The position numbers and the translations under genes were made by a program. From the NCBI GenBank assembly GCA_016188355.1, contig JACPHY010000015.1:1040-65039 (forward strand): DNA of 64,000 nucleotides, given 5' to 3'. This document shows positions 6,540 to 53,546 of the stretch, in pieces. The notes beneath the pieces were generated by a model. That model made no database searches. It was not told the origin of the DNA and saw nothing but the letters and a program-made list of their open reading frames with translations. The stretch is from Candidatus Uhrbacteria bacterium (GTDB taxonomy: Bacteria; Patescibacteriota; Patescibacteriia; JACPHY01). Each line of letters begins with the position of its first letter. Within the stretch, counting starts at the first letter, position 1.

Positions 6540-8426
6540 ATGCCTCTTGCCGATCGCATTCGACACGTACTCCGATCGTTCCCTCTTCCCTCTGCACGAC
6601 AATTGCTCCGCCTCCCGACGGTCCTCGATGCACGGGAACGCATGCGCGCCATCGCCGGTATCGTAGCGCTGCTCACGGGCGGTGCCCTGCTATTCTATTC
6701 GTGGTACGAACGCACCACAGTGGAAGCTCCCGCAATCGGTGGTACCTACGTGGAGGGATTAGTTGGCGAACCACGATTCGTCAATCCTATTTTTGCGATG
6801 GCGAATGATGTGGATGCGGATCTCGCGCGACTCATCTATTCCGGTCTCTTCCGCACCGATCGCACGGGTGCAGTGGTCCCTGATCTCGCGGAGCGATACG
6901 AACTTTCTGACGACGGAAAATCCCTCACCGTCCAGCTCAAGGATGGTCTCCGTTGGCACGATGGCGCGCTCCTCACCGCGAGCGACGTGGTCTTCACCAT
7001 GAATCTCATTGAGGATCCGAATGCCGGAAGCCCGCTCCGCGGCAGTTTCCGCGGCGTGACGGTCGAGCGCGTAGATGATCGCACGGTACGATTCACCATT
7101 GAGCGACCGCTTGCCATTTTCCTGAGCGCGCTCACGGTGGGCATTCTCCCGGAGCATGTTTGGGTGGATATTCCGCCCAGTCATCTTCCCCTTGCCGAAA
7201 TGAACCTCCGACCAGTGGGTTCGGGTCCATTCGCATTTGTGGGACTCACAAAAGATCGGCGCGGCAGCATTCGTTCATATACCGTCGAACGCTACCCGGG
7301 ATACCACGACATCCCCGCTCGCATCGCGCGTATCACCTTCCGGCTCTACGGGAGCACCTCAGAGCTCCTCACCGCGTTCAATGGCCGAGAGGTAGACGGC
7401 ATCGGAACGCTGGTTCCCATGGGAGCGGCAGCGATCACGCGACACGACATCACCCGCTACCCCGTACATCTCCCACAAACAACGGCAATGTTCTTGAACG
7501 AAAAACGTGCACCGGCGCTCCGCGATACCGCGGTCCGACGCGCGCTCTCCATTGCCATTGATCGACGCACGCTCCTCACGGATGCACTCAACGGCGCTGG
7601 CACATTAGTGGGAGGACCACTCATTCCTGGATTTAGTCCAATTGCCGATCCTCCCGCACCAGATCCTTTCGATGCCGCCGGCGCAGCAACTGCGCTCGAT
7701 CGTGCGAAATGGGAACGCGTGGACACTGCGGCAATCATTCAAGCAAAAATTCGTTCTGCGCTCCTCGCACTAGAGGCCGCGAAGGCGAAAGCGGGCAAGA
7801 AGAAAAAAGAACTCGCCGCGACAGACGAGGAGCGAAAACAAATCGGGGATCGCATCCGGGCGGAGGTGACGGAAACGCAGCCGTACTATCGCCTTCGGAA
7901 TGGCACCGTGCTCGAAGTGACCATCACCACCCCCGATGCACCGGAATTCGTTGCCATCGCAGAACGCGTCCGTGACGCGTGGCGTGCTATTGGCGTCCGT
8001 GCAACCGTTGATGCGGTCTCCATTGAACGCATCCGCGGAGACGCCATTCCGAATCGGGCGTACGATGCACTCCTCTTCAGTCAAATTCTCGGTCCCGATC
8101 CCGACCCCTTCCCCTTCTGGCACTCCTCGCAAGTACGCCACCCCGGACTCAATCTCTCCTTCTTCTCCAATAAGGCAATCGATAAGGCACTCGAGGATGC
8201 ACGCGGCACGCTCGACCGCTCCGTGCGTGGACAGAAATACCAGGAATTCCAGCGACTCCTCGCCGAGGAGCGGCCTGCTATTTTCCTCATGACCCCCTCA
8301 CTCTCCTACGTCGTCAGCAATGCCGTCCGCGGCATCACCCTGGAGCAACCCACACAACCCACCGACCGATTCGCCACCATCACCGAATGGTATACTGAGG
8401 TGCAACGGGTGCGTAGGAAGAACTGA
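6540..8426 (+). CDS. ABC transporter substrate-binding protein, family 5 (OppA/DppA-like), N-terminally membrane anchored
   Basis: YVEGLVGEPRFVNPIFAMANDVDADLARLIYSGLFRTD...LTVQLKDGLRWHDGALLTASDVVFTM is typical of SBP family 5. Hydrophobic anchor IAGIVALLTGGALLF. Contains a Lys/Glu-rich helical insert. The true start may be the Met at 6642. Confidence 0.85.
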   Translation: MPLADRIRHVLRSFPLPSARQLLRLPTVLDARERMRAIAGIVALLTGGALLFYSWYERTTVEAPAIGGTYVEGLVGEPRFVNPIFAMANDVDADLARLIYSGLFRTDRTGAVVPDLAERYELSDDGKSLTVQLKDGLRWHDGALLTASDVVFTMNLIEDPNAGSPLRGSFRGVTVERVDDRTVRFTIERPLAIFLSALTVGILPEHVWVDIPPSHLPLAEMNLRPVGSGPFAFVGLTKDRRGSIRSYTVERYPGYHDIPARIARITFRLYGSTSELLTAFNGREVDGIGTLVPMGAAAITRHDITRYPVHLPQTTAMFLNEKRAPALRDTAVRRALSIAIDRRTLLTDALNGAGTLVGGPLIPGFSPIADPPAPDPFDAAGAATALDRAKWERVDTAAIIQAKIRSALLALEAAKAKAGKKKKELAATDEERKQIGDRIRAEVTETQPYYRLRNGTVLEVTITTPDAPEFVAIAERVRDAWRAIGVRATVDAVSIERIRGDAIPNRAYDALLFSQILGPDPDPFPFWHSSQVRHPGLNLSFFSNKAIDKALEDARGTLDRSVRGQKYQEFQRLLAEERPAIFLMTPSLSYVVSNAVRGITLEQPTQPTDRFATITEWYTEVQRVRRKN

Positions 8427-8443
8427 AGACGATCACTTTCGAG

Positions 8444-8526
8444 CCGCGGTGGTGGAATGGCAGACACGCATGGTTCAGGGCCATGTGCCCGCAAGGGCAT
8501 GGGGGTTCAAGTCCCCCCCGCGGCAA
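8444..8526 (+). tRNA. tRNA-Leu (anticodon CAG), long variable arm
   Basis: Hand fold: acceptor gccgcgg/ccgcggc, anticodon stem catgg/ccatg with loop ttCAGgg, long variable arm tgcccgcaagggca, T-arm ggggg-ttcaagt-ccccc, discriminator A, no encoded CCA. Confidence 0.85.
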
Positions 8527-8535
8527 AGACATCGT

Positions 8536-8690
8536 GGAGGAACCTCCCCCACTCCGCTCCTGAACGGAGCTTCGCGGGGCAAGCCGGTTTCCCTCCCGTG
8601 CCCCCTTCCCTCCAGACGGACGAAGCAACCCTACGGCCGCCTGCCCCGCGAAGCGCTGCGCGAAGTGGGGCTGCGCTCGGGCATCGGAAA
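8536..8690 (+). ncRNA. conserved structured tRNA-trailer element, copy 1 (see findings); unknown function
   Basis: The ~57-nt block aacctcccccactccgctcctgaacggagcttcgcggggcaagccggtttccctcc is near-identical (1 mismatch) to the reverse complement of 53467-53525. Distal block ctgccccgcgaagcgctgcgcgaagtggggctgcgctcggg is also conserved and base-pairs with gcttcgcggggca of block 1. Confidence 0.5.
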
Positions 8691-8822
8691 CCGAAAATTC
8701 GGACAGCAGACACCACGATTCCGTCTCATCTTTTAGATTTTCGAAACGCGCAATTTCCTTTTCATTTTCCATTCGACATTCTTTTTCTTCGCGCCGCTGC
8801 GTTTGTTGCGGATCCTCGATCT

Positions 8823-10670
8823 GCGCTCGCGTGCCGGACGCGCACTGTATTCATGTCTCCTATTGCTCCTGCCGTTCCCCCATCTCCTGCGGCTCTCACC
8901 GCACCCATGGGATCGCGTCTCCGACGACGCGGCGCCCGACCACCGCATCGTGGCCGACCACGACCCGTACCACAAGCCGCTGCAGTGCCCACGGAACACG
9001 CACGTGACGTCCTCCGCGTCATTCCGATTGGCGGCTGTGACGAAGTCGGGAAAAACATGACCATCCTCGAGTACGGGAATGATATCCTCATCATGGACAT
9101 GGGGGTCATGTTCCCCGAGGAAGACATGCCCGGAGTGGACTTCATCATTCCGAACATCAAGTACCTCAAGGGGAAAGAGAAGAACATTCGCGGCATCTGT
9201 ATCACCCACGGCCACTTCGACCACATTGGTGCCGTGAGCTATCTCGCGCCGCGCCTCGGGAACCCGCCCATCTTCGGCACACCCCTTACCCTCGCGCTCA
9301 TCAAAAAGCGCCACGAGGAATTCCGAGTGCAGCCGCTCCGGCTCCATCCCATTCATCCCGGAGAACAAATCCAGCTCGGCTGCTTCCGCGTGGAGGCATT
9401 CTACGAGAGCCACAACATTCCGGATTCCGTTGGACTCATCGTCCAAACACCGCACGGCATCGTCGTGAATACGGGTGACTTCAAATTTGACCTCGCCCCG
9501 CTCGGCACCACCCCCGGCGATATCGCAAAGGTGGCCGCACTCGCCGATAAGCACGTGCTCGCGCTCCTCTCCGATTCCACCGCCGCCGAAAAACCGGGGC
9601 ACCAAATCTCGGAGTCGGAGATCACAAAAACCCTCGACCAAATCGTCAAGGATTCTCCGGGGCGCATTATCGTGGGCCTCTTCTCGACGCTCCTCTCGCG
9701 CATCCAGCAGCTCCTCTGGATTGCCGAGAAGCACAATCGCAAAGTCGCGATCGAGGGGTTCTCCATGAAAACGAACATTGAAATCGCGCGCGAACTTCGG
9801 TACATGCAATACCCGAAGGGGCTCATCATAGAAACCGCCGAACTCCTGAAACTCCCTCCGGAGCACCAGATGTTCCTCGTGACCGGCGCCATGGGACAGG
9901 ACCGTGCCGCGCTCATGCGCATCGCGAATCGGGAACACCAGCTCCTGGAGATTGAACCAGGCGACACCGTCATCTTCTCGTCCTCCGTGATTCCGGGAAC
10001 AGAGCGCTCCGTGCAGCGCCTCAAGGACAACGTGGCACGACAGGGCGCGAACGTCATTCACTATCAGATGATGGACGTGCACTCCGGTGGACACGGACTG
10101 CAGGATGACCTGAAGCTCATGATTAAGCTCGTGAATCCGCAGTACTTCATTCCCGTGCACGGCAACTACTCCTTCCTCGTGACCCACGGCAAACTCGCGC
10201 AGCAGGTCGGCATCCCCAAGGAAAACGTGCTCATTCCGGAGAATGGTCGCGTGATCACCTTTGACCGCACCGGTGGCCGCATGACCAACGAACGCGTGCC
10301 CGCGGAACACGTTATGGTGGATGGACTCGGCGTCGGCGACGTCTCCGAAGTCGTGCTCCGCGATCGTCAGCAGCTTGCGGAGGACGGCATGCTCGTCATC
10401 ATCGCCACCATCGAACGGGAAACCGGCGCACTCGCCACGAACCCCGATCTCATCTCCCGCGGATTCGTCCACCTCAAAGAATCAAAACCGCTCCTCGAGG
10501 TGGTACGGCAGAAGGTGCGGGAAATCGTGGAATCCAGTGGAGACGCAAAATCTCGCAGCGGCCCTATCGAGCCCTATCTCCGCACAAAGATCCGCGACGA
10601 AATCGGTAACTTCCTGTTCCAAAAAACAGAACGCCGCCCAATGATTCTGCCCGTGGTCATCGAAGTATAA
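8823..10670 (+). CDS. rnj: ribonuclease J (metallo-beta-lactamase / beta-CASP RNase)
   Basis: VIPIGGCDEVGKNMTILEYGNDILIMDMGVMFPEEDMPGVDFIIPNIKYL...GICITHGHFDHIGAVSYL (HxHxDH motif) plus beta-CASP and C-terminal domains. The ORF-track start at 8457 would overlap tRNA-Leu, so the ATG at 8823 (MSPIAP...) is used. Confidence 0.9.
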   Translation, partial: ALACRTRTVFMSPIAPAVPPSPAALTAPMGSRLRRRGARPPHRGRPRPVPQAAAVPTEHARDVLRVIPIGGCDEVGKNMTILEYGNDILIMDMGVMFPEEDMPGVDFIIPNIKYLKGKEKNIRGICITHGHFDHIGAVSYLAPRLGNPPIFGTPLTLALIKKRHEEFRVQPLRLHPIHPGEQIQLGCFRVEAFYESHNIPDSVGLIVQTPHGIVVNTGDFKFDLAPLGTTPGDIAKVAALADKHVLALLSDSTAAEKPGHQISESEITKTLDQIVKDSPGRIIVGLFSTLLSRIQQLLWIAEKHNRKVAIEGFSMKTNIEIARELRYMQYPKGLIIETAELLKLPPEHQMFLVTGAMGQDRAALMRIANREHQLLEIEPGDTVIFSSSVIPGTERSVQRLKDNVARQGANVIHYQMMDVHSGGHGLQDDLKLMIKLVNPQYFIPVHGNYSFLVTHGKLAQQVGIPKENVLIPENGRVITFDRTGGRMTNERVPAEHVMVDGLGVGDVSEVVLRDRQQLAEDGMLVIIATIERETGALATNPDLISRGFVHLKESKPLLEVVRQKVREIVESSGDAKSRSGPIEPYLRTKIRDEIGNFLFQKTERRPMILPVVIEV

Positions 10671-18825: not shown

Positions 18826-19312
18826 GCTGCGGGTGTCCGGGTGATCGCCCTATCGCAAGATAGGGAGGAAAGTCCGAGCACTTTCGACTCGGAAGAGTCG
18901 TGACATGAGGTAGTCGTTAACGACGACGGGGAGCGACGAGATTGGAGAACGCGCTAGCGCCTTCAATGTCGCCAAGCCCACGGAAGTCCGCCGGTGCAGG
19001 CGGACGTGCGTCTCCGGGCAACCGGAGGGATCCCGCGTGCGGGGCATCGGACTTCGCACGTGACGACCGCAACAGAAAAAATACCGCCAAGGCTCCGATC
19101 CTGAACGCCTTGGTAAGGGTGAAATGGTGGAGTAAGCGCCCACCGGCGCCGCGGTGACGCGGCGAGCATGGCAAACACCTACCCAGTGCAAGGGGAGTAC
19201 CCCCGCTTGAGCCATGCAGTAATGCATGGCCCAGAGAGATGATCACCACCCGCGGAGGACGCGCAAGCGCTCTCCCGCGTGGGACAGAACTCGGCTTACA
19301 CGACACCCGCAG
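18826..19312 (+). ncRNA. rnpB: RNase P RNA, bacterial type A (rnpB)
   Basis: P1 helix gctgcgggtgtc (18826-37) pairs with gacacccgcagc (19301-12). P4 strands agGGAGGAAAGTCCGagc and ACAGAAcTCGGCTTAc. J11/12-P12 region GGTAAGGGTGAAAtGGTGgaGTAAGcGCcCACC. gcAACAGAaAAaAtACCGCC. No ORF of significance in the region. Confidence 0.85.
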
Positions 19313-19350
19313 CATACGAAACCCCGGAATATCTCCGGGGTTTCGTATGC
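19311..19350 (+). terminator. hairpin terminator after rnpB
   Basis: gcatacgaaaccccgga-atatc-tccggggtttcgtatgc: 17-bp perfect stem immediately after the RNase P RNA 3-prime end (no T-run). Confidence 0.5.
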
Positions 19351-26232: not shown

Positions 26233-29200
26233 ATGCTCATGAGCACGCCCCAGACGCGATGGCATCGTCTCGCGCCACTCCTCGTCCTCTGCGCGCTCGC
26301 GCTCCTGCCGCAATCCGTATCCGCAGGCTGGTTCGATTGGCTCTTCCCACCACCGCCCCCTCCCCCGCCCCCACCCGCATTGGAAGTCCGATGCGACGAT
26401 GCACTCCGATGGACCATTCCCAATGTGGAACTCGGGCAATATCGAACGTGCCCGAAAGCCGGTGAGGCGTATGCGGGCGACATCCTCATCATCGACGCGA
26501 AGCACTTCCCCGCGGACAGCGAGGCAAAGCCCGCGCGCATCGCCAAGCTCTACATCTACCAAAACGGCCAATGGCCCACCCGCGCGCTCACCTACGGACC
26601 AACCCGAACCGGGAACGGCAACTTCCGTCTGATGGCGCTCGTGCCCTCGTCCCTCGCGCCGGGCAATTACACCTTCATCCTGCGGGTCGTGGACACCTGC
26701 GGCACACCCTGCACGCGCCCCATACAGTACGAAGGACTCTGTCCGTCCACCGAGTGCCTCCAGGAGCATCGCGACGTCTTCGTGCAGGCATCGTTTGATC
26801 TCCGCATCCGTGATCCCAAACAGGAGGTGCGTCCACCCATCAACCCCGGCAACGGACCGTTCGACTTCACCTGTTCCTGGACCGAAAAAACCTGGAATGC
26901 AGCAACGGAACAATTTGATACGGTAAAAAAATCGAGCAAGGACACCTGCCCCGGTGGCTCTTCATTTTCGCTTAACGCAGGACCTTTTCCACGCGCATAC
27001 CGAGACGAAATGCTCAAGGTGTACCTCCGAGGACCCGCGGACGCAATGGGACTCTGCAAGGATGGCGCGGAGGGTCCCACGCAGTACGGCCATAACGGAT
27101 TCTGCTACTTCCCGCAATACACTCCATTCGCCGGACGGACGTGCGATCCCATGATCGTGTTCCAAGGACCGCGTTGTCGTCAGGGCAAGAGCGACCCCAT
27201 GACCTGCGATGGACCCAATCGTCCGCACTCGCAGACGCCAACGAATTGCCGCATCGCCGTCCAGCATCACCTCGTTGCTCCGCCGGGAACTACCTACGCA
27301 TTGGTCGTGCGGAATTCCTGGGCATCGAATCCTCCAACCCCAGATCGATGGGAGGTGGTCGGGCAATCAGTACTCATCACCGAGCCCATCACGGAACCCA
27401 AGCAAACGTATCGCGGTAAGCAGTTCACCGTCACCCTCGATCGCGATCAGCTCACTTTCGAGAATCCGTACGGATATCCGACGCTCGTTCCGCAGTACAT
27501 CCGAAAAGGACAGCTCATTCCGGGTGCGCGCTTCCAACTGCCGGTGCGCTGGGATGCACCCGCCGGAACCACCTTCCCCTTCTTCCCGCGACACAAGATG
27601 CAGCTCGTCCTAGATGCGGATAGTGCCGGTAATGGCGGAACGGTGCTCCGGGAAGGAAACGCCGCGGAGGCAAAATCGGGGAAAACCACTACGTGGGAAA
27701 ATTTGCAATCACCCAGCGATCTCCAACCGGGGCGACATCGCCTCACCATCCGCTGCACCAACTGCGATGACCAGCTCACCGTCGGCGATCCCGCAATTGG
27801 GAATCGCCCGCGTCCCGTATTCTATGTGCCCACAAGCGTAGAGGTCGAGGTGGTGGATCTTGCCGCTCTCCCCCTGCCCGCCCTTCGCGTACAGCCGACC
27901 GCAGTCGCGCCACACGGAACAATAACGGTATTCGGTACCAATTTTCCACCCGATGCCCGCATCACCGAGGTGACCATTGCGGGACGCGGCGGCAGCGCAA
28001 CGCTCGGCAGCACGTATCGCGCTCCACCATATGAACGATTCACGTTCACCGTGGAAGGACAGCGGGTCACCAAGGAACAGCCTCGCATCGACGTACCCGT
28101 AGCATCCGATGGGCGCATGGCGCTCGTCATCCCACTACCGCCACTCGCCGGAGATCTCGTGGCCGGCCGCGGAGAGGTGCGCGTGGAGGTGACCGTCCGC
28201 GACGGCGCCACCACGTTCAAGAAGCAAACCACCTTCACGATCGATGCGTCGGATTGTCCACTCGGAGCGGAGCGTCCCATTCTTTCCTTTGGCAAAGAAC
28301 GGAGCGATTGGATGGCGCCGACCGTTCCCGTCACCACCGCGGCACCACTCGGGTACTTCCAAGGACAAACGGCGGAAATCTACGGGAAACACTTCGCATG
28401 TCGATCACCCATCACGAAGGTGACGGCGACGTGGAAATCCGGCGGGAACACGTACGGACCCATCGCGCTGCCCCTCCGCAAACTCGAACGCGAGGAAGCG
28501 GCGCCATTTGCCGTCGTGGGTCAAGAGGCAACCAACCATGATGGCACGATCGGGGGGAGCAGCGGACTCGCCCTGCGACCGACCGGATCCCTCTGGTGGC
28601 GCAATCATCTTGATGTGGATCACGTCCTCATCGCGATTACAGATCAGAGCGGCCGCACGAGTGCGCCTACACGGCTTGAGCTCCAGTCGCCCCCCTTCCG
28701 TGCCACGCCGGTCACTCCGAGCGGCGTTGCCGCCGGCGAACGCGCCGCGATCCGGCTCTCCGGTTTTACCTCCGGCCACCGCATTGTCATCGCACCGCTT
28801 CCGAATGAAGGTCTGGGCAATGAGCCGCTCGAATACGCAGAAAATCTCACATGGAATACGGCGCTGGGAAAACGATTTGCGCAGCTCACGAAGAACTTCC
28901 GCCTGGAACGCAATCCGGATACCGTGGACTACCAAATCCCCAGCGACCTCACGACCGGAGTCCACACCTTCGCGGTGGTCGACACCACTGAGGGCGAGGA
29001 GGCGCGCGTGGATTTGAGTCGCCTCCATCATCAGCTCCTCCGCTCGCGACCGCGCGCCCTCTTCACCATGGAGATCGGCGGCAAGAAAACCGCGCCTGAT
29101 GATCAGAAAGACCAGAAGACGGACATTCCGGGGAAAGAAAACCTCGCGATCACCGTAGCGCCCACCACTGCGGCGCCAGGAACCCGCATCACCATCACAC

Positions 29201-31569
29201 TCGCACAATTCACTCCCAACAGCGTACCCACGATCACGTTGGGGGGTGACCGCATCTCACGGTTTACCGAATATACCGACGGCCGCGGGGCACTCATGAA
29301 ACAGTACGAAATTCCCAAGAGTCAAACCCCTGGCACCTACCCCATCACCGCAACCGACCAGAGCGGCGCCAAGGTGGCCGCATCGCTCGTGGTGAACGGC
29401 GTTGCCGCTCCCCCTACACTCACCATCGACCCCACGACCACCACATCAGCATCCTCCGTGGTGGTGCGTGGGAAAAACTGGGGCGATGGTCCATGGACGA
29501 TCACCATGCGCCTCGCGAACGGCAAAGGAAAAGAGTATCCGCTCCCGATCGATATCAATCTCTGTGCGAGAACAGTGAAAGCAGAGGAATGTCAGGACGG
29601 CGATCTGGCCGTGAAGGTCATTCTCCCCGAAGCACTAGAGCCGGGCACATACCGCGTGAACGTTGCGGGAACCACGGTGAGCAAGAGCGCGACACTCACC
29701 ATCATCGCGCAGGATATCCAAGAAGGAACGGAGGCCGCGATCGCCATCACGCCGACCACGGGCGCGCCGGGCACCTCCGTCATCATTAGCGGCACACGTT
29801 TCCAGCCCAATTCGAACGTCATCATCAAGTTTGATGAGCAGGTACTCCGCGCACAGCGCGGCGCCACGCGCACCGACGCACGCGGCGCATTCTCTGGCAT
29901 CACCGTCACCGTGCCCATCACCACCGCCGCAAAACACCAGATCACCGTACTCGACGGACAAGGGCATCGCACATCTACCGCATTCATCGTTGGCGCGATC
30001 AAGGAAGCCGATGGAGACGAAAAGAAAAAAGAGGAACAAAAGGAGACGCCATGCAATCCCGATCTCCCCTCGTTCTACGAGGGCGCATGCCCGAAGGGTA
30101 CGACTCCAGAGCAGAAAAAGGAGGAACCGAAAAAGGATGCGCCGTGCGATCCGAATCTTCCCTCCTGGTGGGCGGGCGCATGTCCAGCAAAATCAAACGC
30201 ACCAACGCCGGAACCCAAGAAGGAGACACCGCAACCAGAGACACCAAAATCCAACCCACCCTGCAACCCCGATCTCCCGTCATGGTGGGAAGGAGCATGC
30301 AAGCCATCCGAACCGTCTCCTCTTCCCGCGCCACAGCCACCCGTCGATACATCCAAATGTAATCCACTCGCTCCGAGCTACACACAACCGCCGGAATGTC
30401 GAAGCGCCGCGGCACCGACCTCGAACACCATCGCCGCAGGCGCTGCGCTCCTGAATCGCGTCGTAGAACCGCTCCTCGCGTTGTTCACGATGCCCACTTC
30501 CGCCGCAGCCGCAAAGGCACCCGCATTCACATCGAAATTCATGGCGGGATCGTACCGCTGCTGGAGCTACAACGTGAGCGGCGGGGGCGGCTCCTGCCGA
30601 CTTGCGCCGCCGCTCGAACTCAAGGCGAACGGAACGTACACCATGTCCAGTGAACGCGGGAGGTTCACCGTGCGCGGAAACCAACTCACCCTCTCGCAAT
30701 CCAAGCTCCGCGGCAAAGGGACGGTGAGCGAAGATGGCATGCGCATCCTGTTCGAGTATCCCTATAACGGATGGCAGCATACCGTCACCTATCTCCGCAG
30801 CACTCCACTCCCCGGGAGCGTGGCAGTGGAACTCACGATCCGATATCCCGAAGAACAGGGATGGCTCGACTGGGTTTCGACGGTGGCATTGGAGCCAACG
30901 AACGGCAGTGCCACGCGATACGATGGCGTCGCTACCGCACCGGATCGACGCACCATAAAAACCACGTACAACCGCGGCGTCATGGGCGGGCTAACCTACC
31001 GCGTGTTCGTCTCTACCGGAACGGACCGACAGGAGGTAGGGGTGCTCGATCTCCGGAAACAACGTGGCGGCAGCATCACGCGCACCATTGATGCACCGCT
31101 ACCGAAACCCACAGCTACCGAACCCGCTGATCCGCCCGTCGCCCCCATCATCGTTCCGATCGTTCCCGCCATGCCGACGACGCCCACCACTCCGGTCACG
31201 CCTCCCGCATCATCGGGAATACCGTGCGATCCCAATGTGCCCAAGTACTCGCAACCAGGCTGCGTCGATCCCGATGCTCCGGTGGTGAGCTCGCCGCCTC
31301 CGACCGCATCCCCCATCATCGAAACGCCGATCTTCGGCACACTCTCAGAGGGACCCACCTGGAATGCCCCTCCTCCCCCCGCGGACCCCACGCCCGCGTC
31401 GCCGCCCGCGTCATCGCCAAGCGCGCCGCCACGAAAAAACATCGGCGACCCATGGACGGATAGCTACGAAAACGAAGACACGCCCATACGCGAGTACTAC
31501 CGCACGCATCCCGGGGCAACCATGGGTCCGCCCCTCCTCCGCTATAACCTTCCCTCAGGGATTTTCTAA
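26233..31569 (+). CDS. giant secreted cell-surface protein (1778 aa): signal peptide, poly-Pro, Cys-rich N-domain, multiple IPT/TIG-like Ig-fold repeats, Pro/Lys/Glu stalk with Cys-bracketed CxPxLPxYWxGC repeats
   Basis: Signal peptide MLMSTPQTRWHRLAPLLVLCALALLPQSVSA and a Pro10 run. IPT/TIG-like segments such as ITVFGTNFPPDARITEVTIAGRG, TSVIISGTRFQPNSNVIIKFDEQVL and SSVVVRGKNWGDGPWTITMRLANGK. Repeats PCNPDLPSFYEGACP, PCDPNLPSWWAGACP, PCNPDLPSWWEGACKP, KCNPLAPSYTQPPEC, PCDPNVPKYSQPGC. Confidence 0.85.
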   Translation: MLMSTPQTRWHRLAPLLVLCALALLPQSVSAGWFDWLFPPPPPPPPPPALEVRCDDALRWTIPNVELGQYRTCPKAGEAYAGDILIIDAKHFPADSEAKPARIAKLYIYQNGQWPTRALTYGPTRTGNGNFRLMALVPSSLAPGNYTFILRVVDTCGTPCTRPIQYEGLCPSTECLQEHRDVFVQASFDLRIRDPKQEVRPPINPGNGPFDFTCSWTEKTWNAATEQFDTVKKSSKDTCPGGSSFSLNAGPFPRAYRDEMLKVYLRGPADAMGLCKDGAEGPTQYGHNGFCYFPQYTPFAGRTCDPMIVFQGPRCRQGKSDPMTCDGPNRPHSQTPTNCRIAVQHHLVAPPGTTYALVVRNSWASNPPTPDRWEVVGQSVLITEPITEPKQTYRGKQFTVTLDRDQLTFENPYGYPTLVPQYIRKGQLIPGARFQLPVRWDAPAGTTFPFFPRHKMQLVLDADSAGNGGTVLREGNAAEAKSGKTTTWENLQSPSDLQPGRHRLTIRCTNCDDQLTVGDPAIGNRPRPVFYVPTSVEVEVVDLAALPLPALRVQPTAVAPHGTITVFGTNFPPDARITEVTIAGRGGSATLGSTYRAPPYERFTFTVEGQRVTKEQPRIDVPVASDGRMALVIPLPPLAGDLVAGRGEVRVEVTVRDGATTFKKQTTFTIDASDCPLGAERPILSFGKERSDWMAPTVPVTTAAPLGYFQGQTAEIYGKHFACRSPITKVTATWKSGGNTYGPIALPLRKLEREEAAPFAVVGQEATNHDGTIGGSSGLALRPTGSLWWRNHLDVDHVLIAITDQSGRTSAPTRLELQSPPFRATPVTPSGVAAGERAAIRLSGFTSGHRIVIAPLPNEGLGNEPLEYAENLTWNTALGKRFAQLTKNFRLERNPDTVDYQIPSDLTTGVHTFAVVDTTEGEEARVDLSRLHHQLLRSRPRALFTMEIGGKKTAPDDQKDQKTDIPGKENLAITVAPTTAAPGTRITITLAQFTPNSVPTITLGGDRISRFTEYTDGRGALMKQYEIPKSQTPGTYPITATDQSGAKVAASLVVNGVAAPPTLTIDPTTTTSASSVVVRGKNWGDGPWTITMRLANGKGKEYPLPIDINLCARTVKAEECQDGDLAVKVILPEALEPGTYRVNVAGTTVSKSATLTIIAQDIQEGTEAAIAITPTTGAPGTSVIISGTRFQPNSNVIIKFDEQVLRAQRGATRTDARGAFSGITVTVPITTAAKHQITVLDGQGHRTSTAFIVGAIKEADGDEKKKEEQKETPCNPDLPSFYEGACPKGTTPEQKKEEPKKDAPCDPNLPSWWAGACPAKSNAPTPEPKKETPQPETPKSNPPCNPDLPSWWEGACKPSEPSPLPAPQPPVDTSKCNPLAPSYTQPPECRSAAAPTSNTIAAGAALLNRVVEPLLALFTMPTSAAAAKAPAFTSKFMAGSYRCWSYNVSGGGGSCRLAPPLELKANGTYTMSSERGRFTVRGNQLTLSQSKLRGKGTVSEDGMRILFEYPYNGWQHTVTYLRSTPLPGSVAVELTIRYPEEQGWLDWVSTVALEPTNGSATRYDGVATAPDRRTIKTTYNRGVMGGLTYRVFVSTGTDRQEVGVLDLRKQRGGSITRTIDAPLPKPTATEPADPPVAPIIVPIVPAMPTTPTTPVTPPASSGIPCDPNVPKYSQPGCVDPDAPVVSSPPPTASPIIETPIFGTLSEGPTWNAPPPPADPTPASPPASSPSAPPRKNIGDPWTDSYENEDTPIREYYRTHPGATMGPPLLRYNLPSGIF

Positions 31570-32205: not shown

Positions 32206-35200
32206 ATGACACCTCACGCATCGGTACGTCGCTCGCTCGCGCGACACGCGCTCATCGCGCTCGCGATGGGAGCGCTCCTCGTTCCCGCGCCCACGCTCGC
32301 CGCAGAACGACTCCTCGCGCGACCCAGTTCGGAACTCATGGACACTCCTCAACGGAGGCCGCGCGTGTCCCCCGAAACGATCCTGCAACGACAAGCCGTC
32401 CAAGCGCTCCGTACGGTGTTTGCTCCGGAAATCAAACAGTACGCCGGACTTGATGCCTGGCTCACCGATCGCGCCCATCCACCACTCCCCCGTGCTATTG
32501 CCGATCTCCAGGCGATCCGCGCAACCAATCCGAGTGCCGGCCTCACCGAACTCACCGGGAACATCCGCGGCAATCGCAACGTGTATCTCCAGTACATGGG
32601 TATCCAGGCGTGGATCGATCAATACGCACCACCCATCATCACGAGCATCGCCCCCGATGCCGTGATCGCTGGCGATCGCGTCACGATCCGAGGAGATCGA
32701 TTTTCGGATATCAAGGGATTGCAATTTGGCACTCGACCACTTCCCACACAAGATTACATTGTCGTTTCGCCGCAAGAACTCATCGTGGAAATTCCGGAAA
32801 CGAATTCCCGATACGGTCCATATGCAATCGCATTCACGATCCGCACTGCCCACGGCACCACCACCTCTTCCAGCATCACCCAATGGACCGGCACATGCAC
32901 CGATGCACGCATCGGACGTGCATTCACCGAGCTCCTCAACACGAAACCCCGAGGCGACAAGACGCAAGGACAATGCGACCCCGCTCCGTACGGCGCGTAT
33001 ACGTCATATACGGATCTCCTCATCAAGGTAGCCCAACGACACGGATACACGAAACGCGATGCGCCCGTCATCACGGAAATCGCTCCCGGGGTAGGTAATC
33101 CTGGAGACCGCATCACCATTCGCGGTCGCAATCTCTACCAACTCACGGATGTCCTGTTCGGAAATCACCGCGCAGCATTCACCTCACTCTCCGCCGACGA
33201 AATTACCGCCACCGCACCCGGGGAAGGCGCCGGTGTTATCACCATCATCACTAAATCCGGATCCGCAAGCTCCCCACAAGCGTTCGCGTTCCATCCCATT
33301 CCCAAGATCACCGCTACCACGCCCGCGGAAGTCATGTTCACTGATCAACCGCTCACGTTATTCGGTGAACATCTCGGCGAGGACACTGCGAACACCGAAG
33401 TGCGCATTGGCAACGTGCGCTACCCCGTCGAAACCACGCGCGGTGCGGGTGAGGTGATCATCCGCCCGAACCAGCCGGCACAAAACGCCATCATCACGGT
33501 TCGGCGCAATGGCCGACAATCAGAATTCCGATCCGGCATCGACATTTGGACCGGCAAATGCCGCGATCCATGGATCACGCAAGCATTTCAGGACCTCTTT
33601 GGGCGTCCCCCATGGGGGCAGGACGATCTCGGCCAATGCGATTACCGAAAATATCGCAATGGCAAGTGGAATAATTACGAGGAGCTCAAATTCGGCGTAC
33701 GCCAAGTGTACGGATACGGCACCGGCGCCGCGCCCACGATCACCCGCGTCGACCCCCCATCACCCGTTGCAGGAACGCGTGTCACCATCCACGGAACGGG
33801 ATTCACCAATCTCCAGTCGGTTATTTTTGGGAGCAATGCCGCGCAGGATGTCGTACTGCAATCGAATACCGCGATTGCCGCCACCGTTCCCTACGGTGCC
33901 GGGAGTGGCGATGTGGTCGTGGGCACCCTCTTCGGGGTCGCACGTCTGGCCTATACCGTGCAATATCCCCCCGTCGTCAGTCGCATCGAGCCGGTGAATC
34001 CCCGACCAGGAACGACGATCACCCTCTTCGGCTCCCATCTCGACGTCGTGGATACGGTGATGATCGGATCCGCCACAAGCACGATCCGCGAGCAATCGAC
34101 AACCAAACTCGTCGTCGAGGTGCCGCGCGACCTTGCGGGCAAGCACCGCGTCACCGCGAAATCGCCGCGGGGAGACTCTGCATGGCCCGCAGACATTGAT
34201 ATTGCCGTCGTGAAAAACCTCCTCGGCGAGGAAGAATACTGCTTCCCGGGGGTCGGCAAACAATGCCTGGGAAGCGGCGACGAATGGGAATGGCATGGGC
34301 TCGGATCGCAAAAGATCCTCAAGCCCATCGGCTGCTCGAAGGAGGATACCATCACCCTTGATGGAGAAACGTTTGCTGCGCGGTCCTGTTGGGTGGTCCC
34401 TGGTAGCATCAAGCACGATAACTGCTGCCTGCAGCATCCTTCAGGAAAAAATTGCGGAGGACCAGGGAAGAATCCATTCAATAAGGACGAGCCGGATCGC
34501 GATTGGATCTCGGGCAAAGTGAATCCTGCAGGCGAATTCAACCACGACGGCACCTGCGTCCAGGAATGGGATGATGCATTCTGGGATGTGGCCTGGGGTC
34601 GCGCGTGGCCTGCCTTGTTCCGGTCACAAGTACCGGCAAATATCAGCCCCGCCCCCAGTCCACATAACCGGTACCCCAAGGGCGAAGTGGTTGATTCTGC
34701 ATCCGCGTGCGCTCCGGATGGCACCTATCTCACCGCGAAGCATGGCGCAGGATTCTGTTGCTCCGGGAAATTCGAGAAGGACACCGCATACTACGTGCTC
34801 GGCGTGGAGCCATGGGCACGATGCGGGAACGGTCTCGGGAGCATCGTGAAAAATTTGAAAGCAGATCTCGCGATCACGGGCCTGGACCTGAGCACCGCGC
34901 CGCCGTCACCGAACGATCTCCTCCAAACGACGCGCATGCCCACACCGTCCCCAATCACCACCAGTAATCCGCTCGCCACGGGCATCGTGGGCAATTTCAC
35001 GCAGCCCGTACCGGGACCAAGCGCCATCACCACCTCCAATCCCTTCTCGGTACCTGCAGGCCGATCGAGTCGAGGCGTCCAAGGAATCACCCCCGGTACC
35101 ATTGAGCAGGGCGGCGTCATCGCTCCTCCCGCACCCACCAGTCCCCCCACACCCATCCCGACGACGCTGGACGTAACCACCAAGTACTGCAATCCGGAGC

Positions 35201-36363
35201 TTCCGAAGTATTGGCAGCCAGGGTGCACGGAACGGCCAGCCAACGCGCCGCCGGAGGTCAAATACTGCGACCCTACTCTGCCCCGCATTTGGCAGCAGGG
35301 ATGCGTCGCGCGCGGCTCCGCTACGGATCCCGTACTGCAACCGACCACGCCAACACCCGCGCCCCCGGGACGCGAACTCACCCCCGCAAACACCACCGGG
35401 CCCGTACCCGCCGCACCGTCCACTCCGCCCATTCCCCCGCCGAGCGCTGCTGCCCCAAGCGTGCAGTACTGCGATCCCGAACTCCCGAAGTATTGGCAGC
35501 AGGGATGCGTCGAGCCGACCACGGCACCCACACCAATTCCCGCCGCACCCACTCCAGCCGCATCGCGCTGTGATCCGGCGGTGCCCATGTACATGCAGCG
35601 CGGCTGCACGGAGGCAACGCTGCCACCCGAGCAACGCATAACGCACGCCCCATCCTCGCCTTCGCTCGCCAGTAGGTTGCTCCAACCACTCGTTGCTGCG
35701 CTCCTCGCCCCCACTCCCATCACCGCCGCGGAGCCGCCCGCAATCACGCCCCCGGACCAAACAAAATCTACCGCGACCATCACCGTCGCACCCAAAACCG
35801 CACGTCCCGGTCGCCGACTCCTCGTGCAGGGAGAAGGATTCACACCGGAACTTCGCATCGCGGTAGCCATTGATGGCAAGTTCGAACCGGAAATTGAGGA
35901 GGAAACCGAGGAGGACGGATCATTCGATTGGGCCTACGTCATCCCGCGCACCATGGCCAATGGCCCACACGAATTGCTCGTAGTGGATCGCAATGGCGTC
36001 AAGGCGAGAACCAGCTTCACGGTCTTTGGCTCTGCCGTTCGCGCCCGACGAACACCACCGCCAACCACCAACCCATCGCCCAGCGTGCCGCCGACGATTT
36101 CCGTTCCCGTCGCCCCCGCCACGCCGACGGATCGCCGATGCGTGCCGCTCATTCCCCGCCTCTGGCAGCCCGGATGCATCGAAGAATCGGCGCCATCTGC
36201 ACCGCTCCCCTTTGCGGGGAAGTCATGCGACATGAATATTCCGATCACGTTCCAACCCGGCTGCATCGAACCGGAACGCCCGCTCCCCGCACTCTCGGAT
36301 ATGACCGGAAAACCATGCGATCCCCGCGTACCCAAATACACCCAGCGCGGATGCGTGGAGTAG
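32206..36363 (+). CDS. giant secreted cell-surface protein (1385 aa): five IPT/TIG domains, duplicated W-T-G-x-C...G-Q-C-D module, Cys-rich domain, Pro-rich stalk with seven CxPxLPxYWQxGC repeats
   Basis: Signal peptide MTPHASVRRSLARHALIALAMGALLVPAPTLAA. IPT repeats PIITSIAPDAVIAGDRVTIRGDRF, PVITEIAPGVGNPGDRITIRGRNL, PTITRVDPPSPVAGTRVTIHGTGF, PVVSRIEPVNPRPGTTITLFGSHL. Repeats YCNPELPKYWQPGC, YCDPTLPRIWQQGC, YCDPELPKYWQQGC, RCDPAVPMYMQRGC, RCVPLIPRLWQPGC, SCDMNIPITFQPGC, PCDPRVPKYTQRGC. Confidence 0.85.
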   Translation: MTPHASVRRSLARHALIALAMGALLVPAPTLAAERLLARPSSELMDTPQRRPRVSPETILQRQAVQALRTVFAPEIKQYAGLDAWLTDRAHPPLPRAIADLQAIRATNPSAGLTELTGNIRGNRNVYLQYMGIQAWIDQYAPPIITSIAPDAVIAGDRVTIRGDRFSDIKGLQFGTRPLPTQDYIVVSPQELIVEIPETNSRYGPYAIAFTIRTAHGTTTSSSITQWTGTCTDARIGRAFTELLNTKPRGDKTQGQCDPAPYGAYTSYTDLLIKVAQRHGYTKRDAPVITEIAPGVGNPGDRITIRGRNLYQLTDVLFGNHRAAFTSLSADEITATAPGEGAGVITIITKSGSASSPQAFAFHPIPKITATTPAEVMFTDQPLTLFGEHLGEDTANTEVRIGNVRYPVETTRGAGEVIIRPNQPAQNAIITVRRNGRQSEFRSGIDIWTGKCRDPWITQAFQDLFGRPPWGQDDLGQCDYRKYRNGKWNNYEELKFGVRQVYGYGTGAAPTITRVDPPSPVAGTRVTIHGTGFTNLQSVIFGSNAAQDVVLQSNTAIAATVPYGAGSGDVVVGTLFGVARLAYTVQYPPVVSRIEPVNPRPGTTITLFGSHLDVVDTVMIGSATSTIREQSTTKLVVEVPRDLAGKHRVTAKSPRGDSAWPADIDIAVVKNLLGEEEYCFPGVGKQCLGSGDEWEWHGLGSQKILKPIGCSKEDTITLDGETFAARSCWVVPGSIKHDNCCLQHPSGKNCGGPGKNPFNKDEPDRDWISGKVNPAGEFNHDGTCVQEWDDAFWDVAWGRAWPALFRSQVPANISPAPSPHNRYPKGEVVDSASACAPDGTYLTAKHGAGFCCSGKFEKDTAYYVLGVEPWARCGNGLGSIVKNLKADLAITGLDLSTAPPSPNDLLQTTRMPTPSPITTSNPLATGIVGNFTQPVPGPSAITTSNPFSVPAGRSSRGVQGITPGTIEQGGVIAPPAPTSPPTPIPTTLDVTTKYCNPELPKYWQPGCTERPANAPPEVKYCDPTLPRIWQQGCVARGSATDPVLQPTTPTPAPPGRELTPANTTGPVPAAPSTPPIPPPSAAAPSVQYCDPELPKYWQQGCVEPTTAPTPIPAAPTPAASRCDPAVPMYMQRGCTEATLPPEQRITHAPSSPSLASRLLQPLVAALLAPTPITAAEPPAITPPDQTKSTATITVAPKTARPGRRLLVQGEGFTPELRIAVAIDGKFEPEIEEETEEDGSFDWAYVIPRTMANGPHELLVVDRNGVKARTSFTVFGSAVRARRTPPPTTNPSPSVPPTISVPVAPATPTDRRCVPLIPRLWQPGCIEESAPSAPLPFAGKSCDMNIPITFQPGCIEPERPLPALSDMTGKPCDPRVPKYTQRGCVE

Positions 36364-53059: not shown

Positions 53060-53219
53060 TGGCGCGCTATTTGTATACCATAAACCACCGCTCGCGTCAA
53101 CGTTCCCCCCCAAAAAAAACAAAACATCGTCGGGCGACGAGTTTTGCTTGCAAACAAGATATTTGTTGATCCTCGCACCACCAATCCGTTCGCGGATCCA
53201 TCCGATCCCGAGCGCAGCC

Positions 53220-53527
53220 CCCACTTCGCGCCCCACGCCGTCAAACTCTACGGGGCAAGCAACGCTTCGCGGGGCAAGCGAGGACGCGTTCGGGGAAGAA
53301 GACAGGCCGACCCTTGTGTCGTCTCGAGGAGCGCTGGGCGACGAGAGATCTCACATGCCCCATGTATGGTGTGAGGTCCCTCGCGGACTCGGGATGGTGC
53401 CAAGCACCAGCTTCACGCCGACCCCGAATGCGCCCGCAGGCAAGCGACCGAATGCTTCTGCGTCGTCTGATTGGAGGAGGGAAACCGGCTTGCCCCGCGA
53501 AGCTCCGCTCAGGAGCGGAGTGGGGGA
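53220..53527 (-). ncRNA. conserved structured tRNA-trailer element, copy 2 (longer, with a ~200-nt insertion between the conserved blocks)
   Basis: Reverse complement of 53467-53525 is aacctcccccactccgctcctgagcggagcttcgcggggcaagccggtttccctcc (1 mismatch to copy 1). Distal block cttgccccgcgaagcg...gcgcgaagtgggggctgcgctcgggatcgga is conserved; a 15-bp pairing gcttcgcggggcaag / cttgccccgcgaagc is possible. Confidence 0.5.
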
Positions 53528-53546
53528 GGTTTGCCCATGATGTCTC

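Follow-up and report, generated by a model that had tools for sequence, protein, structure and literature searches.

The window analyzed here is a 64,000-nt (64-kb) stretch of a Candidatus Uhrbacteria contig; Uhrbacteria belong to the ultra-small bacteria of the candidate phyla radiation (CPR/Patescibacteria). It contains two tRNA genes in opposite orientations, and the trailer behind each carries conserved blocks. ARAGORN placed tRNA-Leu(CAG) at 8443 to 8525, which confirmed the gene recognized in the initial annotation but shifted its coordinates by 1 nt. A scan of the window with Rfam 15 at gathering thresholds returned only the two tRNAs and RNase P. Repeat copies were identified with a covariance model, R1, whose training set lay outside the window and consisted of 110 sequences from other CPR contigs plus the tRNA-Arg trailer copy of a close relative (locus L006). 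The features are as follows.

8443 to 8525, plus strand: tRNA-Leu(CAG), no encoded CCA (ARAGORN; Rfam tRNA, 51.3 bits)
8526 to 8690, plus strand: Leu trailer unit, ~165 nt, with two convergent motif copies and a ~54-nt spacer
8541 to 8596, plus strand: shared 56-nt block, Leu side
8547 to 8584, plus strand: proximal Leu copy, forward, 38 nt (R1 match 8543 to 8590, 45.6 bits, E = 6e-10)
8639 to 8690: distal block, Leu side
8639 to 8670, minus strand: distal Leu copy, reverse complement, 32 nt (R1 match 8633 to 8674, minus, 36.2 bits, E = 1.6e-7)
53125 to 53140, minus strand: terminator-like hairpin followed by a T-run, ~60 nt past the distal end of the Arg unit
53190 to 53546, minus strand: Arg trailer unit, a paralogue of the Leu unit enlarged by nested extra segments
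53201 to 53281: distal block, Arg side
53219 to 53279, plus strand: distal Arg copy, reverse complement relative to the tRNA, 61 nt (R1 match 53215 to 53285, plus, 40.9 bits, E = 1e-8)
53273 to 53438, minus strand: extra segment in the Arg unit, 166 nt
53476 to 53531, minus strand: shared 56-nt block, Arg side
53488 to 53525, minus strand: proximal Arg copy, forward relative to the tRNA, 38 nt (R1 match 53482 to 53529, minus, 45.5 bits, E = 6.5e-10)
53547 to 53621, minus strand: tRNA-Arg(CCG), no encoded CCA (ARAGORN; Rfam, 69.2 bits)

Two convergent pairs of one motif

The 56-nt block common to both trailers (aacctcccccactccgctcctgaRcggagcttcgcggggcaagccggtttccctcc) contains one mismatch, and its 54-nt core pattern matched twice in the window, against 0.00 matches expected from 100 shuffles. 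This block had been reported before with its single mismatch, which is correct, but as 57 nt and with second-copy coordinates that are 6 to 9 nt off. The distal blocks and their ability to pair were also borne out: the distal CCCCGCGAAGC is complementary to the proximal GCTTCGCGGGG over 13 bp in the Leu unit, as reported, and over 16 bp rather than 15 bp in the Arg unit. Within the window, what is conserved is nucleotide sequence and not a protein-coding frame. All window copies lie in the interval that separates the tRNA from the following gene, and no supported ORF includes them; the 737-aa ORF at 8457 to 10670 that overlaps the Leu-side copies shows homology to RNase J no earlier than 8853.

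R1 detected exactly four copies in the window (E values of 1e-7 to 6e-10), and the next best match had an E value of 0.14 for the 64-kb window. These matches form two convergent pairs that coincide with the blocks. The blocks had implicitly been regarded as two different conserved elements; they are instead two inverted copies of one motif, which consists of CCCCACTYCGC, a variable hairpin, and then GCTTCGCGGGGCAAGC. The proximal Leu copy reads CCCCACTCCGC-TCCTGAACGGA-GCTTCGCGGGGCAAGC, with the central hairpin extended to 5 bp, and the proximal Arg copy differs from it by a G for an A in the loop. Because this central hairpin is longer, the proximal copies in this genome measure 38 nt. The distal Leu copy ends in CAGGC instead of CAAGC. 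The distal Arg copy has a 34-nt insertion in its central loop (53230 to 53263; 32 inserted bases in the R1 alignment), within which a further hairpin is predicted.

Once the 166-nt segment is taken out of the Arg unit, a full-length alignment of the two trailers, beginning right after the tRNA and reaching ...CTGCGCTCGGG.ATCGGA, shows 84% identity over 178 positions, and their paralogy is also seen by blastn. The trailers are therefore homologous over their whole length, and the ~165-nt trailer is a repeated, REPIN-like unit. This finding contradicts the initial annotation, in which the sequence between the blocks was considered unrelated and its variable length was used to argue for a structured RNA; the spacers are homologous. 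The 166-nt segment is bounded by a 9-nt direct repeat, TCGCTTGCC (53439 to 53447 and 53273 to 53281), and its ends form an imperfect 14-nt inverted repeat (GGGCGCATTCGGGG / CCCCGAACGCGTCC). Its first 72 nt recur in L006 at 90% identity, and no further copy of the segment was found within the window.

A third tRNA, the tRNA-Arg(TCG) of L006, has a trailer of the same kind that contains the proximal motif copy only, indicating that two-block pairing is not conserved. In all three known tRNAs of this Uhrbacteria lineage (Leu-CAG, Arg-CCG, and Arg-TCG in L006), the unit starts at the first base after the tRNA, and at least three different tRNA genes are immediately followed by it. The known copies in the lineage, four in the window and one in L006, are all in tRNA trailers and none is in an ORF, so they may have a secondary tRNA-related use.

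The predicted folds of the whole trailers were not clearly more stable than those of shuffled sequences (z = -1.2 and -1.8). When Rfam 15 was searched at E ≤ 10 over 8400 to 8860, the trailer unit at 8526 to 8690 matched no family apart from a 6-bit chance hit to RF01946 (E = 2.1). No intrinsic terminator was found on the tRNA strand in 8000 to 9200, and no U-run follows the Leu unit. The tRNA-Arg transcript probably ends at the hairpin and T-run at 53125 to 53140, in which case the Arg unit would lie inside it. A terminator structure had also been suggested for the units themselves and was rejected, as there is no hairpin with a U-run at them.

Sequence, hairpin and spread of the motif family

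Beyond the window, the pattern CCACTYCGC-N3-14-GCTTCGCGGGGCAAGC matched at least 120 metagenome stretches, so the further copies anticipated in the initial annotation are present in other CPR contigs and genomes. Matches to a 19-mer were found in genomes of Patescibacteria (including Parcubacteria), Peribacteria, and Saccharibacteria, and the GC content of the hosts ranges from 32 to 67%; this 19-mer requires CGG after the motif, and the scan of genome contigs therefore does not bear on absence outside CPR. The family consensus is (C)CCCACTTCGC, a loop or variable hairpin, GCTTCGCGGGG, and an unpaired CAAGC tail, with a core length of 30 to 31 nt. The borders of the motif are sharp and its flanks unrelated, with flank information of ~0 bits except for two C's that complete CCCC. 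The arms are identical across several phyla, and this perfection is partly built in, since the foreign copies were retrieved by exact pattern. The unpaired end CAAGC (GCTTG on the other strand), present in 111 of 111 aligned copies, is likewise fixed by the search pattern.

Structural covariation, proposed earlier as a check, was observed in the hairpin. The pair that closes the loop is C-G in 58 copies, U-A in 27, G-C in 3, and U-G in 3; a weaker copy in L071 has a compensatory change from C-G to T-A, and the longer "loops" are self-complementary stem extensions. The minimum-free-energy fold of the core agrees with the proposed hairpin on both strands. The consensus hairpin differed little in stability from shuffled sequences (z = -0.15 and -0.9), and the window-type hairpin was more stable than shuffles on the complementary strand (z = -3.1). 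What is conserved thus appears to be the sequence and not the stability of the hairpin.

No copy of the motif was found in viral contigs, PLSDB plasmids, or INPHARED phages. Clustering of 1,231 ORFs from 125 motif-bearing loci revealed no recurrent transposase-like family; the recurring families were host ones only (class I aaRS, pilins, LigA, and UvrD). No RAYT, the Y1 transposase whose gene is flanked by its cognate REP repeats, was seen near copies in the same clustering, which is a weak test. The signal for a target site duplication is mixed: direct repeats of 6 nt or longer accompany 11 of 112 copies, where 0.8 would be expected, and some of these lie within local 7-nt tandem arrays, but a clean comparison of a filled and an empty site (described below) shows none beyond CC. 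Motif orientation relative to GC skew was 48:27 (P = 0.02), a bias of the same size as the sense-strand bias and hence confounded with it.

Orthologous sites with and without the motif

Comparison of orthologous sites showed the motif to be present at some and absent at others. Four relatives keep the order SBP, tRNA-Leu(CAG), RNase J and lack the motif, and motif-free tRNA-Leu trailers occur in relatives whose RNase J is 79 to 81% identical. The closest relative (L138), with 92% identity in RNase J, has intact trailer flanks on either side of an exact 38-nt gap at the proximal copy. This gap corresponds to the motif including its unpaired tail, and comparison of the filled and empty sites, the one clean comparison of this kind, revealed no duplication beyond CC. 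The distal copy in L138 is decayed. For the tRNA-Arg locus, located through BacA homologues, the next best homologue was only 56% identical, so that no close relative was available for comparison.

Copies inside protein genes

Open frames of at least 150 aa contain 86 of 107 distinct copies, 59 in sense and 27 in antisense orientation, and all six frames are used. Random 31-nt windows of the same loci fell in such frames at a rate of 81%, compared to ~80% of motif copies. The motif is therefore not depleted from coding DNA. The host genes, confirmed by Pfam, include those for LeuRS, ValRS, MetRS, ArgRS, UvrD, LigA, TopA, RNase R, a PilB-type ATPase, and pilin leaders, so that the motif is tolerated in frame inside essential genes. 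The in-frame peptides are PHFAKASRGK, PLRQGFAGQA, PTSPRLRGAS, and three antisense versions. Among close ValRS homologues, 96 of 112 have an 8- to 9-aa linker after LGWP; in the remaining 16, ~10 residues are added, which read HFAEASRGKP or a decayed form of this peptide. ValRS proteins annotated by NCBI include the motif-encoded residues.

Discussion

We estimate a probability of about 0.8 that a ~30-base hairpin repeat dispersed in CPR genomes, present here in inverted copies, accounts for the conserved blocks behind the two tRNAs. On this reading, the conservation of the blocks reflects their origin as copies of one repeat, and their complementarity reflects the inversion of those copies. 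The apparent long-range pairing is then a by-product of the inverted copies and does not warrant an entry as a new tRNA-linked RNA. We classify the repeat as a new family of REP/RPE-like interspersed hairpin repeats of the selfish type; the motif is not a dedicated tRNA-linked RNA. The initial annotation had allowed that the blocks might be parts of a mobile element's repeats, and this is essentially what they are, but no prior description of the element was found. Against the family view stand the modest density of copies (4 per 64 kb in the window; a further 16 in the 702 kb that other loci comprise), the absence of a transposase-like family recurring near copies, and the identity of the arms across phyla, which is unusual for REP-type elements.

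A dedicated structured RNA on tRNA 3' trailers, acting as an sRNA, processing signal, or terminator and having its blocks conserved to pair across a variable spacer, is improbable. The unit does begin at the first base after all three known tRNAs of the lineage, the window copies are confined to trailers, the predicted long-range pairing spans 13 to 16 bp, and the window-type hairpin exceeds shuffles in stability on the complementary strand. Some copies in other CPR loci also abut tRNA 5' ends (L079 and L085) or lie 50 to 90 nt upstream of tRNA-Thr. However, the orthologous tRNA-Leu trailer lacks the motif in four relatives and is partly deleted in the closest, and L006 has just one of the two blocks. 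The earlier proposal of a trailer-borne sRNA is also opposed by the distribution of the motif: over 100 unrelated settings contain it, ~80% of these lying within ORFs and in both orientations, and dozens of unrelated genes have in-frame copies. In addition, the whole-trailer folds are not significant, the Leu unit lacks a U-run while a separate canonical terminator follows the Arg unit, and there is no Rfam match even at an E value of 10. That nucleotide identity instead reflects the coding sequence of a conserved peptide module is scarcely credible. The motif is translated elsewhere, and NCBI includes it in ValRS annotations, but the use of all six frames leaves no single conserved peptide, the window copies are outside any supported ORF, and identity extends to synonymous positions while the flanks diverge.

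Conservation of sequence rather than stability, occurrence in both orientations and in coding and noncoding DNA in proportion to abundance, the inverted pair at gene ends in the window, and identical arms across phyla would also be expected of a DNA uptake signal. If a competence receptor favored motif-bearing DNA, uptake bias and recombination could accumulate the motif and keep it identical across CPR lineages, and genes for type IV pili and ComEC are common among CPR bacteria, as is a lack of nucleotide synthesis. We judge this reading quite improbable because the density of the motif is ~1 per 16 to 44 kb compared to ~1 per kb in known USS/DUS. The motif is also a discrete 30- to 38-nt insertion or deletion relative to homologues, whereas known uptake sequences arise by point substitutions, and decayed ValRS copies persist. 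It is very improbable that the blocks are recombination sites, whether att-like remnants left at tRNA genes by an integrative element or inverted repeats through which the intervening 45 kb is flipped. The 3' ends of tRNAs are classic integration sites, and inverted units 45 kb apart with a 56-nt near-identical block could in principle support homologous inversion. An att-like origin is opposed by the lack of a duplicated tRNA 3' end anywhere in the window (≤3 mismatches) and of an integrase or transposase among the annotated ORFs. The 45-kb interval contains housekeeping and cell surface genes, e.g., those for a TrpRS/TyrRS-type synthetase, MgsA, RNase P RNA, and glycosyltransferases. GC content is uniform, GC skew is uniformly negative across both junctions and throughout the window, and relatives keep the junction of tRNA-Leu with RNase J together with the downstream gene order; neither a genomic island nor an inversion is supported.

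The dispersed hairpin repeat of the preferred reading resembles several known systems. As described in PMC3733652, REP elements are 20- to 40-bp imperfect palindromes with an unpaired GTAG or CGTC tag at one end; their units are often closely spaced and opposed and fold into larger structures, and they are often downstream of genes and in some cases within them. The 31-nt core of the motif is likewise an imperfect palindrome with a hairpin and an unpaired tag, and the convergent copies of the window form a REPIN-like dimer. Unlike in REP, the tag is CAAGC/GCTTG, and the weaker copies found by R1 also lack GTAG and CGTC. REP elements are mainly extragenic and high in copy number, whereas ~80% of motif copies are intragenic and their density is low. 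Arms shared by several phyla are a further difference, as REP-type elements are usually species or genus specific.

RPEs, as summarized in PMC2229807 (citing Ogata et al. 2000, 2002), are palindromic repeats that lie in frame in conserved protein genes of a reduced-genome bacterium, as well as beside or in RNA genes, and are regarded there as selfish and mostly neutral. The same source describes them as Rickettsia specific, 105 to 146 bp long, and bounded by terminal inverted repeats (PMC2229807). The motif resembles them in its in-frame fusion into conserved genes (ValRS with and without a 10-aa insert; Pfam-confirmed hosts) and differs in its length of 30 to 38 nt and its CPR hosts; the two were compared by description, and sequence similarity is not expected. 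MITEs (Correia/NEMIS, ERIC, and RUP) are nonautonomous, in some cases fuse open frames intragenically, and have inverted ends that give rise to transcript hairpins (PMC2229807). With a motif copy close to each end, the two being inverted, the ~165-nt trailer unit has the general layout of a MITE. MITEs are 100 to 170 bp long with TIRs and target site duplications of fixed length (often TA). In contrast, the trailer unit has no evident end duplication, the 38-nt indel in L138 leaves a CC ambiguity only, and flanking direct repeats accompany only ~10% of motif copies.

Haemophilus USS and Neisseria DUS share with the motif a short conserved sequence, both orientations, coding and noncoding locations, and inverted pairs at gene ends; the motif differs in a density 20 to 40 times lower and in arising by insertions or deletions, not substitutions. 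Heterocystous cyanobacteria reportedly contain imperfect-palindrome repeats of ~21 to 27 nt (Elhai et al., Genome Research, 2008) that were proposed to be mobile and are said to be nested in other repeats and occasionally in genes. Their sequence and host clade differ from those of the motif, and they are not known to lie mostly in frame in essential genes.

We suggest that the repeat spreads as a nonautonomous element whose sequence would be recognized by a putative trans-acting enzyme. The unit in the window is probably transcribed within the tRNA 3' trailer, where it could fold into a long hairpin and would be discarded after endonucleolytic 3' processing. It would then be at most a passive RNA hairpin, serving as a barrier or as a target of a double-stranded RNase. 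A more far-reaching version is possible but doubtful: the 30-nt hairpin may be an actively mobile element shared by the whole CPR radiation. It would insert, or be copied, with no preference as to coding status and would then persist as an in-frame part of essential genes, among them those for aminoacyl-tRNA synthetases, DNA ligase, topoisomerase, UvrD, and pilin leaders. One conserved putative trans-acting enzyme that reads its sequence would keep it near identical across phyla, and the tRNA-trailer dimers of Uhrbacteria would be a lineage-specific offshoot. If the mobile-element reading is true, the hairpin would rank with the smallest mobile DNAs described so far.

Searches of Rfam, of plasmid and phage collections, and of the searchable literature (by sequence, concept, or any of the six encoded peptides) gave no earlier description of the family, and a 2026 paper on tRNA introns in Patescibacteria mentions neither the repeats nor the trailers. 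Near-identity across hosts with 32 to 67% GC implies a conserved recognition factor, and the repeat lends itself readily as a marker of gene flow, or of machinery held in common, between CPR lineages. It adds 10 to 13 residues to many essential CPR proteins, which affects annotation, alignments, and phylogenies based on aaRS and repair genes. It also explains recurrent odd peptides in hypothetical CPR proteins, such as PHFAKASRGK, PLRQGFAGQA, PTSPRLRGAS, LAPRSLGEVG, and others. Finally, the repeat breaks short-read assemblies, and assemblies made independently break at it.

Inverted motif copies behind two tRNA genes

The tRNA-Leu(CAG) and tRNA-Arg(CCG) genes of the window, neither of which encodes CCA, are followed by four copies of one motif.

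Features of the two tRNA loci (window coordinates; E values from covariance model R1)
8443-8525, + strand: tRNA-Leu(CAG), ARAGORN
8543-8590, + strand: motif copy, model match, E = 6e-10
8633-8674, - strand: motif copy, model match, E = 1.6e-7
53215-53285, + strand: motif copy, model match, E = 1e-8, 32 extra loop bases
53482-53529, - strand: motif copy, model match, E = 6.5e-10
53547-53621, - strand: tRNA-Arg(CCG), ARAGORN

The two trailers share a 56-nt block with one mismatch (8541-8596 and 53476-53531), and a 54-nt core pattern of this block gave 2 matches, against 0.00 expected from 100 shuffles. A distal block is also present in both trailers, where CCCCGCGAAGC can pair with proximal GCTTCGCGGGG over 13 bp behind tRNA-Leu (copy 1) and 16 bp behind tRNA-Arg (copy 2). 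The shared blocks reported in the initial annotation are real, although the coordinates given for them were a few bases out. That annotation also regarded the sequence between the blocks as unrelated. Once a 166-nt segment is taken out of the Arg trailer, the trailers align at 84% identity over 178 positions, from the base right after the tRNA to ...CTGCGCTCGGG.ATCGGA. Since the trailers align throughout, what is repeated is the whole unit of ~165 nt (8526-8690) and not two islands.

On the opposite strand, the distal block reads CCCCACTTCGC-(loop)-GCTTCGCGGGGCA, and the proximal block, CCCCACTCCGC-(loop)-GCTTCGCGGGGCAAGC, is the same motif. Any two copies in inverted orientation would show such complementarity, which had suggested a designed long-range helix. 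Model R1 was built from sequences outside the window, including L006, a close relative's copy of the trailer, and the window was scanned with filters off. The four matches coincided with the blocks, and the next best had an E value of 0.14. A structured tRNA-trailer RNA, as originally proposed, is not supported as such; we consider both blocks to be copies of a dispersed repeat, with a probability of about 0.8.

A 9-nt direct repeat, TCGCTTGCC, delimits the 166-nt Arg segment (53273-53447, -), whose ends form imperfect inverted repeats of 14 nt. The segment looks like a small nested insertion; L006 shares its first 72 nt, and the window contains it only once. In the distal Arg copy, a 34-nt insertion with a further hairpin (53230-53263, +) occupies the central loop; the motif centre therefore tolerates large expansions. 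A hairpin with a T-run that resembles a canonical terminator lies about 60 nt beyond the Arg unit on its distal side (TCGTCGCCCGACGA, then TGTTTTGTTTTTTTT and a G7 run; 53100-53140, -). Because this terminator-like site lies beyond the unit, the unit is probably cotranscribed with the tRNA and then removed during 3' processing. The RNase P RNA of the window (18829-19314, +; bacterial class A, 165 bits) is 486 nt long against a 367-position model and so carries long insertions; model R1 found no motif copy inside it.

The RNase J encoded in the window is a 100% match to that of a Candidatus Uhrbacteria contig of 66,074 nt. Within the Uhrbacteria lineage, the trailer unit lies behind at least three tRNA genes, from the base right after the tRNA, and all known motif copies sit in tRNA trailers. 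In L006 (JACPAO010000147.1), the tRNA, Arg(TCG), and the upstream DNA are different, and ~190 nt of the same trailer is present, taking in the proximal copy and some of the 166-nt segment; the distal motif copy is absent from this trailer. The L006 record is titled "Methanobacteriota archaeon," its trailer is ~84% identical to the Uhrbacteria window, and the contig is probably mis-binned. At other loci from the candidate phyla radiation, antisense copies abut tRNA-Asp and tRNA-Ile at their 5' ends, where they overlap the acceptor G's, and some copies lie 50 to 90 nt upstream of tRNA-Thr. This placement may reflect tolerance, tRNA flanks being among the few noncoding sites in compact genomes. 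The unit could also have a secondary use in tRNA transcripts.

The tRNA-Leu locus compared with relatives

Four syntenic contigs were found through RNase J homologues (79 to 81% identical); of these, L139 and L140 have the same RNase J protein, from two different samples. The gene order SBP_bac_5, tRNA-Leu(CAG), RNase J was kept in all four, and the motif was present at this locus in none (0/4). In the closest relative, L138 (RNase J 92% identical), the 3' half of the tRNA is identical and the trailer flanks are the same. Exactly 38 nt is absent between ...GGAACCTCCC and GGTT..., which corresponds to the motif including its unpaired tail, and the distal copy is degraded. The edges of the gap are the borders of the element, not the base of the stem, which would be easier to reconcile with gain or loss specific to the element than with generic hairpin slippage.

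The AT-rich 150 nt preceding RNase J (8700-8853) is ~95% identical between the window and L138, next to a tRNA trailer scrambled by indels, and is probably an rnj promoter or 5' untranslated region under constraint. In L139 (9363-9490; RNase J 80% identical), the tRNA-Leu trailer lacks the motif and has GC-rich GAA-loop hairpins, GGGGC-GAA-GCCCC and CAGC-GAA-GCTG, the GCGAAGC-type mini-hairpin theme seen on the complementary strand of the motif. Three independent assemblies (Logan contigs L136 and L137 and the start of NCBI contig L138) end in or just after tRNA-Leu and the repeat, in L137 only 4 nt beyond where the model match stops; short-read assemblies are broken by the repeat.

Other readings of the trailer units

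A search of Rfam with the trailer unit (E up to 10) returned nothing but a 6-bit chance match spanning the proximal part. The suggestion of an att-like relic at the tRNA genes does not hold in the window, where neither tRNA 3' end occurs a second time and the annotated open reading frames include no integrase. Inversion of the intervening 45 kb was also suggested; GC skew is uniformly negative, and the junction and gene order are the same in relatives, giving no indication of it. The sequence conservation of the motif and its indifference to orientation would suit a DNA uptake signal, but motif density is low and the motif behaves as an insertion or deletion, making this reading very unlikely.

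Nor is there any indication of an integrated island between the units: the 45 kb contains housekeeping and surface genes, and its GC is uniform. A cell-surface locus does lie between the two tRNA units: two open reading frames of 1778 and 1385 aa with IPT/TIG domains (26233-31569 and 32206-36363, +), followed by a glycosyltransferase cluster at 36 to 44 kb.

A dispersed family of palindromic repeats

A 19-mer from the block was found at 15 loci in a scan of one genome per species. Ten were bare chance matches in coding DNA, and five had the extended motif: the close relative L006 and genomes labelled Patescibacteria, Peribacteria, and Saccharibacteria (two). In metagenomes, the pattern CCACTYCGC-N3-14-GCTTCGCGGGGCAAGC matched at least 120 stretches, and the matches listed were mostly contigs of 32 to 50% GC from groundwater and sediment. 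The flanks of 111 distinct foreign copies among the matches listed carry no information except for two C's completing CCCC, so the borders are sharp and the core measures 30 to 31 nt. No motif copies were found in viral contigs, plasmids, or phages. Literature searches by sequence, encoded peptides, and concept found no description of the family, and we file it as short interspersed palindromic repeats without an earlier description found.

The predicted fold consists of CCCC/GGGG, a C-G pair, a 3x3 internal loop, a central hairpin, and the unpaired CAAGC tail. Among the matches listed, the variable centre was 4 nt long in 94 of 124 copies, most commonly CAAG, and its first and last bases covaried (C-G, 58; U-A, 27; G-C, 3; U-G, 3). 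Where the centre is longer, it extends the stem with self-complementary sequence (for example, GCC-CTTCG-GGC, GCTCGA-TCCGG-TCGAGC, and, in the window, GCTCC-TGARC-GGAGC). In the lower stem of a weaker copy, C-G is replaced by T-A, a compensatory change. The complementary strand is predicted to be more stable (-12.8 versus -8.8 kcal/mol). The consensus fold is no more stable than shuffled sequences (z = -0.15 and -0.9), indicating that sequence, not stability, is conserved. The arms are identical across phyla. Ascertainment through the exact search pattern accounts for part of this identity, which nevertheless points to a conserved factor that recognizes the motif.

Copies inside genes

Among the matches listed, 86 of 107 distinct copies are located within open frames of 150 aa or more (59 sense, 27 antisense). 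Random 31-nt windows in the same loci fall within such frames in 81% of cases, which means that coding DNA is not depleted of the motif. The copies occupy all six frames (PHFAKASRGK, PLRQGFAGQA, PTSPRLRGAS, ACPAKPWRSG, LAPRSLGEVG, and LPREALAKWG). Among the matches listed, the prevailing centres measure 4, 7, and 13 nt, and the insert stays a multiple of three. Pfam confirmed housekeeping genes as hosts; these include LeuRS, MetRS, ArgRS, and one class II synthetase; three UvrD-type helicases, an AddB-like helicase-nuclease, two NAD-dependent ligases, and topoisomerase I; and an RNB-domain (RNase II/R-type) exoribonuclease, a PilB-type ATPase, and a Mur ligase, among others.

We compared 112 proteins sharing at least 65% identity with a Zambryskibacteria ValRS. 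The linker after FSTLGWP has 8 to 9 residues in 96 of them, and the other 16 have ~10 added residues, HFAEASRGKP or decayed forms (HVAQASRGEP, QSAYAMQGKS, APKGTLGET). The leaders of type IV pilins repeatedly contain antisense copies, directly before the GFTLxE cleavage motif. In the pilin loci (L025, L027, L030, L048, L055, L063, L069, L070, L077, L083, and L103), the GGGG end of the motif provides the glycine codon ahead of GFTLxE.

Traces of spread and comparison with known repeats

Exact direct repeats of 6 to 12 nt flank 11 of 112 copies among the matches listed, against 0.8 expected, and could be target duplications or footprints. Several of these copies lie inside locus-specific 7-nt tandem arrays, including (AAAACTC)n, (AAATCTC)n, (AAGAAAC)n, and (CGAAATT)n. 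Three aaRS genes have a diverged 33-nt duplication around the motif. Together, the repeats, arrays, and 33-nt duplications suggest duplication at insertion; the clean filled/empty pair, the window and L138, shows no duplication. No recurrent transposase-like family was found near motif copies. Any mechanism of spread is an inference, as is any role in tRNA transcripts.

Loci with flanking repeats or arrays are L017, L034, L047, L072, L073, L080, L086, L100, L105, L106, and L128. At L059 (10696-10745), L124 (75-115), and L130, in the N terminus of a class I aaRS, the host duplication KYNPSEIEPKW ... KYNPSLIEPKW flanks the motif.

The motif has the form of a tagged palindromic repeat, as do repetitive extragenic palindromes (REPs), and the motif dimers of the window resemble REPINs. 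A passage in PMC3733652 gives REPs a GTAG or CGTC tag; our motif, in contrast, has neither tag, is mainly intragenic, and is sparse. Closest in behaviour are Rickettsia palindromic elements, for which a passage in PMC2229807 describes in-frame fusion into conserved genes and a length of 105 to 146 bp, compared with the motif core of 30 to 31 nt.
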